Positions 35,201 to 38,200 of a stretch of 64,000 nt of DNA are shown here, in pieces. How positions within the stretch are numbered: the first letter of the stretch is position 1; every line of letters starts with the position of its first letter. Position numbers: made by a program. This DNA comes from Pirellulales bacterium (GTDB lineage: Bacteria > Planctomycetota > Planctomycetia > Pirellulales > PALSA-1355): contig CAVTBU010000005.1 in assembly GCA_963733035.1 (NCBI GenBank), forward strand, positions 480,001-544,000, written 5' to 3'.

Positions 35201-38200
35201 GACTCGGGGCCCAAATCTCGTCGAGTTTGATCGCTTCGAGCAGTTGACCTGCGCAGACGAATTTCGGGGTCGGCGTCGTTGAGTGCCTTCTCTAGCTGTT
35301 CTCGGCTGCCATTGCCGATTTTCGCCAGACGTTGAAACGCACCGCGTCGAGTCGAAAAGTCCCGGTCGCCCAGCTGTTTAATGAGCGTGGCCACGCGCAC
35401 TTCGTCGGCAGGCTTCGGTTGAGCCACCACGTCGACCGGTGACGCGAGTAGTATCAGCGCCAACAGACTCGGCATGCCGGCACGCCGGCAAACCCGCGGA
35501 GAGTTCCAATCCATGGACCGGCTCCTGCGGAAACTTGGTTTCTGGTTCGAGCAGTTCGTTGCCCGGACGCGTTATCGTCCCGTTCCGCTTGCCGACACCC
35601 AACGGCTCGGCCGGGCATGGGCAAGCGTCCCGAGGCCGGTTATCCTGTCGGCTCGGGATACTTAATTCCAAAACGGGCGAACAGTACGAAAACGCCTCCG
35701 CCGGGTCAATGCCGAGCCGAGGACGAGAATTTCCATGACGGCACAGACAGCACCTGCCGAAGTCGACTGCTTGAGCGTCGGCATCCTCGTAGCCGACCAT
35801 CTCTGCGATCCGATTGACCACGTTCCGGCCGCCGGCGAATTGATCCTCTCCGAACGGCTGCCGTTGGCCATCGGCGGGTGCGCATCGAACGTGGGGATCG
35901 ATTTGGCCAGACTTGGCGTTCGCGTGGGCGTCATAGGCTGCGTCGGGCAAGACGCGTTCGGCCGCTTTATTATTGACGCATTGGCTGCCGCACAAGTCGA
36001 CGTACGTGGAATTCGCCAACTGGCCCATGCGGAAACTTCCGGCACGTTGATCATCAATGTGCGGGGCGAGGATCGCAGGTTCGTGCATGCCGTGGGTGCC
36101 AACGCCCATTTGCAGGTAGCCGACATTCCACGAGAACGTGTTCGACAGTCCAAGGTGCTCTATGTTGGTGGCTATTTGCTCATGCCAGCGCTCGAAGGCG
36201 AGCCGCTGGCCGCCTTGTTTCGCGATGCCCGGGCGGCAGGCGTCAAAACCGTGCTCGACCTCGTGCTGCCTGGACCGGGAAACCACTGGCCAAAACTCGA
36301 GCAGGTCTTGGCCGAGACCGACGTCTTTCTGCCAAATACCGACGAAGCCCGGATGCTCTCTGGCGAGGTGGATCCCTTGCGTCAGGCGGAGCGGTTTGCC
36401 GCGGCCGGAGCCGGCGCGGTCGTGATCACCTGCGGCGGCGAAGGGTCGATCATTGTATCGGGCAATCAGCGGATGCGGGCCGAAGCGCATCAGATGGAAT
36501 ACAAGGGGGGCACCGGTGCGGGAGACGCCTTCGACGCCGGCTTCATTGCGGGTCTTCTTTTAGGACACGATCTAGCCGATTGCGTCCGCTGGGGAAGCGC
36601 CGTCGGAGCGAGCTGCGTACGATCGATCAGCGCCACTGACAGCGTGTTCACTCGCGCCGAAGCCGAAGCCTTCTTGCGGGAACATCCGTTGGCGGTGCAC
36701 CGTCTTTAGACATTCCGCCTCTAAGCATTCCGCCCACGAACGGCCCCTTGGTTCGGCTCGCCCCCCACTCTTGGGATTTGCTTTTTGCCGGTCGTAGCGG
36801 AAACGGCAATTTGCGACTCCGAAAGTGACGGCTGTCGCCAATCACTCCACCGGTTTGTGTCCTATGGTTTTTTGAGGCTGGAGCGATAGGCCAGCCCTGG
36901 CAGATGAGCGACCTCGATGAGACGGCACCTTGCGCAAGATCTTGCACCGCTTCCGTCGGTTTTTTGGCTCGGACGAAGGTCCGACGGCGGTGGAGTACGC
37001 CGTTATGTTGGCACTCATTCTGTTGGTCTGCGTGTCGGGCGCTCGGACGCTCGGCTGCAGCATGCAAGCCCCCATGGCAACGACCGCAAATGAACTGGGG
37101 AAATAGGACTCCGTCGCGCGAATTGACAATTCCACAACGAACCGAGCGACCAAATTGAGGTAGGGTTTCCGTAGCCGCATTGATCTCCAACAGAGGCAAA
37201 CCATGTTCCGAAACAAACCACGCCGCCAATTGTTCGTCGACAAACACGTTCAAGGTGCTCTGCTCTATCGCATCGCCATCTATTGGTGCTTCTCGGTTTT
37301 GACGGTCTGCCTCATTACGCTCTGCGCGAGAGCCATTACACATCCGAATCAACCGTTCCTCGACTACTTTGCTTTTGGCGAGTTCTTCGTGCAGTACGGC
37401 CCGGTCATATTGACTTCGTTGGTGCTGGTACCGCTGATCATGTTCGACGTGGTGGCCATCAGCAATCGCTTTGTCGGCCCGCTGTTCCGCATGCGCCGCT
37501 CAATGCGAGCCCTGGCCGCGGGCGAAGAAGTCGAGCCAATCCATTTTCGCGAGAAGGACTACTGGCAGGAATTGGCCCAGGAGTTCAACCTCGTGCTTGT
37601 CCGGGTCGAGGAGTTGAAACAAGAACTTGCCGAAACCAAACAGAAGTTGGCCGAAGCCGAGCTCGAGACAGTCGGAAAGAAATAGCCGGGCGGAAGCGAG
37701 CAACGATCTCCGATGTGCTCGGCAGCGAGCCCCATTTTCCGGCGTAAAAGCGGACCTGCCGTTGTTGACAGCCGCGGCGGGCCGGCCTATGCTAAAACCC
37801 TCACTTGCTCGTCAGTTTGAGAACCTACGATGCTTGTCTTTGGCCGCCTGAACCGAAACGTTGCCGCCGCGATCGCCGTTGGCGTCATTATTATTTCGGA
37901 GGTGCGGCCGTAAGGGCGAAGCGGTGAAGACCGATTCAAACCAAGCCCCGAGGCCGCCAAGGCCTCGGGGCTTTTTTCGTTTTTTTGTCCCACAAAACTC
38001 CGAGTCCTCCTCGAACCACTGGAAACCAAGACTATGCGTCGCATTCAGATGTACGACACGACCCTCCGCGACGGCAGCCAGGGCGAAGGTGTCAACTTCT
38101 CGCTGCAAGACAAGCTGCTGATCACCGAACGTCTCGACAGCCTGGGTTTCGACTACGTCGAAGGAGGCTTTCCCGCATCGAACGAAAAAGACGCCCAGTA

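Follow-up and report, generated by a model that had tools for sequence, protein, structure and literature searches.

The E. coli leaders ilvL, thrL and trpL share the layout of the classical transcription attenuator. The parts of such a regulator, as set out for leuL and for the Streptococcus leuA leader in the sections of PMC5314783 that deal with them, are a promoter, a short open reading frame (ORF) carrying codons for the pathway product, a protector, an antiterminator and an intrinsic terminator. Actinobacterial ilvB leaders (the ilvB-II motif of Corynebacterium and Streptomyces ilvL) are described in passages of PMC10272879 and PMC8079986 as an upstream ORF (uORF) with Ile, Val and Leu codons combined with a terminator and an antiterminator. 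According to the part of PMC1262725 that concerns the Streptomyces coelicolor ilvB leader, codon substitutions in it were without effect, and by analogy this look-alike would caution against reading such a leader as a sensor of tRNA charging. Other regulators act on related genes: the uORFC-13-1 motif is a leader ORF before aroF in Acholeplasma (section on this motif in PMC8632094), the LEU element before actinobacterial leuA is a pseudoknot in which the Shine-Dalgarno box is paired (section on leuA in PMC1262725), and T-box riboswitches before genes of the leuA family (COG0119) in Bacillota take tRNA charging as their signal for transcription control (section on T-boxes in PMC12452182).

The leader that we describe here, upstream of the citramalate synthase gene cimA of a Pirellulales bacterium, has the same parts as the classical attenuators. 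It differs from them in its target, in a codon run dominated by isoleucine and nearly free of leucine, in a protector that spans the entire ORF from start to stop codon, and in having no Rfam match. Like the ilvB leaders it would place a regulated uORF ahead of a branched-chain pathway gene; before ilvB itself, our scan of the source genome picked no terminator-plus-leader. With T-boxes it would share the signal of tRNA charging, but Rfam detects no T-box here and sensing would be done by a ribosome on an ORF. uORFC-13-1 and the LEU element stand before genes that also carry the sister attenuators described below; they belong to other taxa and structures and neither is located at cimA. We found no description of a cimA attenuator or of a planctomycete attenuator in the open literature that we searched; older comparative surveys may contain an earlier prediction. 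Term probing gave none in passages of PMC2965389, PMC4833913, PMC12452182, PMC9026213, PMC1262725, PMC5314783, PMC8632094 (with one supplement), PMC10272879 and PMC8079986. The mechanism is a textbook one, which limits the surprise.

The window, by which we mean the whole stretch of 64,000 nucleotides that was analysed, carries these elements:

37765..37793, + strand: sigma-70-type promoter, TTGACA-17-TATGCT (motif match, 1 found versus 0.5 expected)
37830..37913, + strand: leader ORF of 27 codons with an ATG start, MLVFGRLNRNVAAAIAVGVIIISEVRP and stop (ORF scan, Ile-rich homologous leaders)
37872..37895, + strand: control codons Ile15 (ATC), Val17, Val19 and Ile20-22 (ATT ATT ATT) (codon list)
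37842..37909, + strand: protector (1:2) hairpin across the leader ORF, -29.8 kcal/mol (folding)
37904..37957, + strand: antiterminator (2:3), -25.4 kcal/mol (folding and covariation)
37943..37986, + strand: intrinsic terminator (3:4), 13-pair stem and U tract, -29.3 kcal/mol (folding and covariation)
38034..39647, + strand: cimA, citramalate synthase, 537 aa, with a C-terminal LeuA-type allosteric domain (TIGR00977, PF00682, PF08502)

A preliminary description had placed here an uncalled leader of 27 codons that ends in an Ile/Val run, followed by a strong terminator of -29.6 kcal, and had proposed that Ile-tRNA attenuates cimA. The leader is indeed below the size limit of gene callers, and its peptide matches no NCBIfam or Pfam family. 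The run is not at its very end: five codons, SEVRP, come after it, so that the three consecutive Ile codons stand 6-8 codons ahead of the stop, and it is this spacing of the run from the stop that is conserved. The strength given for the terminator agrees with ours. Its stem occupies 37943-37973 and is followed by the U tract; 60 nt separate it from cimA, and a promoter motif scan of this gap found none. Beyond the earlier account we identified the sigma-70-type promoter, from which transcription is expected to start near 37800, and the antiterminator, in which GGCC-G-TAA-GGGC at the leader stop pairs with the 5' arm of the terminator and a small hairpin (37922-37933) is enclosed. No Rfam family matched the window element above its gathering threshold, the best scores (20 bits) being chance hits to the terminator only, and Rfam gave 0 hits across 10 loci. 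The leaders are unannotated small ORFs and candidates for new Rfam families. Directly 5' of the promoter lies a 160-aa membrane protein (37203-37685) with a weak HAMP-like stretch, for which no family scored above cut-off.

The combination of parts is rare in the source genome. There are 2463 terminator-like sites, 980 of them with a short ORF ahead, and an ATG ORF with at least three Ile among its last 14 codons is found at only 3 of these places; the window leader is the sole one with a stop-to-stem gap of about 30 nt.

The element recurs at cimA throughout the family, where cimA was present in 29 of 33 genomes and 28 loci had upstream DNA. When the leader ORF was picked blind, by position alone and regardless of composition, a leader plus terminator was found at 26 of the 28 loci; 21 of these 26 leaders have at least three Ile and none has three Leu. 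In family cimA leaders the final 14 codons are 0.8% leucine. A covariance model built from 38 cimA leaders located the element at 27 of the 28 loci (22 in the training set, the other 5 scoring 48-83 bits), L023 being the locus without it. The counts of the preliminary description, 24 terminators and 16 leaders among 28 loci, were therefore too low. Beyond the family the blind pick gave leaders at 40 of 79 loci in a wider set, 29 of those 40 Ile-rich, and at 23 of 78 in a phylum sample, 15 of the 23 Ile-rich, with 47 of the 78 loci lacking a terminator, which makes the element patchy across the phylum. The covariance model matched 0 of 30 cimA loci of Pseudomonadota.

An Ile-aware rule applied to 185 cimA loci returned 69 Ile leaders, 13 Leu, 5 Thr and 1 Phe leader; one of the 69, L143, is probably a chance match, and a relaxed leader rule gave 83 cimA loci. 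The Ile maximum of the 69 leaders falls 6-8 codons ahead of the stop, the stop-to-stem gap is mostly 26-34 nt, and all three stop codons occur. Codon choice is peculiar to the leaders, with ATT to ATC at 238 : 105 compared with 88 : 250 in the first 100 codons of cimA. A similar promoter lies 5' of 62 of the 69 (versus 15% of shuffles), and at 55 of 61 loci an ATG frame stays open across the Ile run, as against 4 of 122 among the other frames, a comparison that is partly circular because a start codon was required. Four family leaders (L016, L022, L024, L029) have 1-2 Ile. In L022, L024 and L032 the RNA scaffold is kept and the run is Ile-poor, with IMM in L024 and spaced AI repeats in L032; drift or altered sensing are possible there. 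Four Gemmataceae-type loci (L062, L063, L094, L098) have Ile/Val leaders with a common AAQGVR stretch, and their weaker or displaced terminators were overlooked by the automatic rules.

Both alternative helices are supported by covariation. Across the 38 sequences, pairing reaches 84.5% for the antiterminator, where double changes number 25 against 9.9 in shuffles, and 92.7% for the terminator, where they number 29 against 9.7, although kinship inflates these figures. Slid controls for the antiterminator pairing reached 26-50%, and the covariation score for both helices was reached by 0 of 500 shuffles. In 20 of 22 family leaders strand 2 of the protector pairs with upstream sequence, with a median of 0.82 compared with 0.53 for shuffles.

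We modelled the switch by masking a ribosome with a 12-nt footprint on the nascent RNA. With the A site on Ile15 to Ile21 the antiterminator folds and captures 0.75 of the terminator 5' arm; on Ile22 capture falls to 0.36 with this footprint, and at Val25 or the stop it is 0.00 and the antiterminator is absent. The two pairings exclude each other in the models. Capture reached at least 0.5 in 69 of 69 Ile leaders with a stalled ribosome and in 5 of 69 with the ribosome at the stop. The terminator wins in the finished RNA at equilibrium whatever the position of the ribosome, and the switch must therefore be kinetic. This fold test is permissive, and covariation is the stronger evidence for the antiterminator: shuffled spacers give a median capture of 0.50, and 90 of 632 other genome sites with a terminator and a short ORF (14%) are switch-like. 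Genome-wide discovery by switch-like folding alone was dropped because these 90 sites pass.

The locus combines a leader ORF after a promoter, a run of product codons, a terminator, an antiterminator sharing a strand with it and, in the models, the appropriate stall and stop geometry. Since all structural parts are present, conserved and correctly spaced and the codons match the product, sequence and modelling support the proposed attenuation by Ile-tRNA, and we assign a probability of roughly 0.87 to the reading that cimA is controlled by a classical ribosome-coupled transcription attenuator whose main signal is charged Ile-tRNA. RNA polymerase would begin near 37800 and a ribosome would translate the leader. 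With ample Ile-tRNA the ribosome would arrive at the stop (37911) and cover the GGCC-stop-GGGC strand, the terminator would fold and transcription would stop at about 37975-37980, short of cimA. With scarce Ile-tRNA the ribosome would pause at ATT ATT ATT, 6-8 codons before the stop, and open the protector hairpin while the stop-flanking strand stays free. That strand would then capture the terminator 5' arm and the polymerase would continue into cimA, probably into valS too. If the leader were left untranslated, the protector would hide the 5' strand of the antiterminator and termination would be the default. Leader translation, ribosome pausing, a response to isoleucine and co-transcription of valS are what we infer from these parts. 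The model offers a specific mechanism of gene regulation in Planctomycetota that is open to test.

A switch could also depend on translation and yet not read tRNA charging. The nascent peptide might arrest the ribosome at Arg-Pro-stop, which we take to be comparable to TnaC, or the leader might be a general sensor of translation rate. An RP ending occurs in 28 of the 69 leaders, and the S. coelicolor ilvB leader, a suspected translation-rate sensor in the section of PMC1262725 devoted to it, offers a precedent. Base pairing accounts for the RP codons, however: 26 of the 28 use CGG for the final Arg although CGC prevails in cimA (272 versus 119), so the leader tail is conserved as RNA and not as peptide. 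The other 41 leaders end differently, the leaders range in length from 9 to 44 codons, and the amino acid run changes with the gene (Ile, Leu, aromatic). Peptide-level conservation with free synonymous change, the criterion for a TnaC-like arrest, was not seen. Arrest or rate sensing therefore appears improbable to us. That the leader is simply a constitutive small transcript with its own terminator, a small RNA or a hydrophobic small protein, with cimA relying on leak or on a different promoter, would suit the hydrophobic peptide and the strong terminator. It hardly fits the rest, and we consider it very improbable: the peptides have no conserved N-terminus, whereas covariation links the stop flank to the terminator arm; at 27 of 28 family loci the unit accompanies cimA; and the 60 nt between terminator and cimA hold no promoter that we could find.

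The reading of the leader as an Ile-tRNA attenuator may extend to a second amino acid, as cimA is followed by the gene for valine-tRNA ligase:

39663..39689, + strand: possible internal promoter of valS, TTGATC-15-TAGAAT (promoter motif)
39736..43031, + strand: valS (valine-tRNA ligase), the next gene after cimA, broken up by frameshifts in this assembly (profile matches)

The leader would then be a dual sensor of Ile and Val acting on a cimA-valS transcript, a stall at Val17 or Val19 raising valS beyond the output of its own promoter. These two codons stand just ahead of the Ile run, and in the models a stall there also frees the antiterminator. valS follows on the same strand, and the gap in the window has no terminator, nor a promoter under a rule of spacer 16-18. 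valS is the next gene after cimA in 83 of 128 loci with more than 500 nt downstream. The last 16 leader codons hold a mean of 2.56 Val with adjacent valS (n=52) versus 0.63 without (n=19), at least two Val being present in 46 of 52 leaders of the first group and in 2 of 19 of the second. This comparison left out 4 loci with a more distant valS and 8 of unclear state, and its totals include Val25, which RNA pairing fixes. GC3 is alike in both groups (0.75 and 0.73), and GC drift as a source of the Val codons was unsupported (rho 0.19, p 0.11). A preset prediction came true in 9 of 9 genomes: adjacent valS is missing in 5 of 5 cases where the leader has no Val and present in 4 of 4 where it has at least two. 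One of the two exceptions to the rule, G166, has valS 2 kb further down on the same strand.

Against a dual sensor, a CimA tree of 69 rows (14 of the 83 loci omitted for a short protein or unclear valS state) yielded only 3 independent pairs on supported branches and 6 on all, with a median sign-test p of 0.5, so co-evolution of Val and valS falls short of significance. Moreover, valS has its own promoter-like element. Under a strict rule 10 of 28 family gaps contain a promoter versus 3.6% of shuffles, and by eye a TAAAAT/TAGAAT hexamer is present in 20 of 27. Of 6 valS genes located apart from cimA, none has a Val leader by eye. It is plausible from sequence that the leader senses Val-tRNA as well as Ile-tRNA, and we would give the full dual sensor slightly less than even odds. 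A link between Val codons and valS, if real, would make a testable case of leader and operon co-evolution. Many family loci show an unusual CTGTTG motif upstream of the gap hexamer.

The gene downstream of the leader was correctly named in the preliminary description. Its product scores 669 bits on TIGR00977 (cut-off 450) and stays under the cut-off of every LeuA model listed, and we assign it to CimA with a predicted citramalate synthase activity on pyruvate plus acetyl-CoA; a separate leuA elsewhere in the genome reaches 715 bits against a cut-off of 598.7. Among solved structures those of LeuA and homocitrate synthases come nearest, and the named relatives of the protein are mostly from Planctomycetota. 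CimA would provide the threonine-independent route that had been proposed. As sole route to 2-oxobutanoate it is unsupported, because the genome also has a threonine ammonia-lyase-like (ilvA-like) gene, split over two frames (G000:C5 1870619-1872342), and CimA need not be the only source. Such a match occurs in 51 of 61 class genomes, just 3 of them above the TIGR01127 cut-off; CimA may be the main source. The leader is regulatory evidence for a role of TIGR00977-clade CimA in isoleucine synthesis here, even beside a threonine dehydratase-like gene.

Several other genes of this assembly are broken: valS (window 39736-43031), ilvB (window 28691-29545) and the ilvA-like gene each lie in at least two frames, and a second DAHP synthase match (G000:C8 409672-410788) covers part of its model only. 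These are probably assembly indels rather than pseudogenes. The source genome also has a dense tRNA gene array at about 241400-266400 of one contig, which includes a tRNA-Ile with a TAT anticodon.

Two sister leaders were found in the source genome:

G000:C7, leader start 361804 (L218), - strand: leuA with a Leu-rich leader, MNTPLTNLLPLLLLALPR and stop, plus terminator (genome scan, blind pick)
G000:C6, about 323960-324105 (L234:1475-1549), + strand: DAHP synthase with a Phe/Tyr/Trp-rich leader, MNDFLRVYFWYFFIPLSRGAGGGT and stop, plus terminator (cimA covariance model)

In the family, the blind pick gave leaders at 21 of 25 leuA loci; 19 of the 21 are Leu-rich and none is Ile-rich. These data support the view that the codon run of a leader follows the product of its pathway, being Ile at cimA and Leu at its paralog leuA. 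Clear aromatic leaders were present at 5 of 25 DAHP synthase loci of the order. The cimA covariance model matches 21 of 25 leuA loci with up to 38 bits. Across 61 class genomes it gave 30 hits, namely 12 at cimA, 9 at leuA, 7 at DAHP synthase, 1 at an Ile leader with a group II intron behind it and 1 other; 29 of the 30 carry matching codons. Nine of the genes were confirmed by HMM and the others by N-terminal likeness. Near the stop and in the terminator arm the consensus blocks of cimA and leuA resemble each other, which suggests a common origin of the two scaffolds, though convergence on a GC helix could produce the same. These paralogs, whose RNA scaffolds match and whose sensing codons are exchanged, offer a clean natural experiment on how attenuator specificity changes.

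Isoleucine leaders at cimA also occur outside the phylum. Nonomuraea cimA (L294:520-650) is preceded by a leader ending LLIIGRRAG-stop and a terminator. Among 74 metagenome relatives of the Nonomuraea protein (L384-L451), 27 combine a terminator with a leader that holds at least two Ile, often four or five, as counted by the Ile-aware rule without a shuffle control and with taxonomy inferred from identity alone. A restriction of the leaders to Planctomycetota is ruled out by these actinobacteria-like cases. They misfit the planctomycete model (best 16 bits), so isoleucine attenuation of cimA would occur on at least two scaffolds. A broader scenario would have one portable cassette in Planctomycetia copied before three pathway-entry enzymes and recoded for each (Ile/Val at cimA-valS, Leu at leuA, Phe/Trp/Tyr at DAHP synthase), its codons co-evolving with the operon such that Val is kept where valS lies downstream, plus a second origin at cimA in Actinomycetota on the other scaffold. 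Taken as a whole, we regard this scenario as rather unlikely.

The Ile leader followed by an intron is located at G253:C46 (L235 / L263:300-3500). There a leader of the cimA type and its terminator precede a group II intron with two RT copies, and the contig ends ahead of any cimA. Class IIC introns tend to insert after terminators, and the position of this intron fits that habit.
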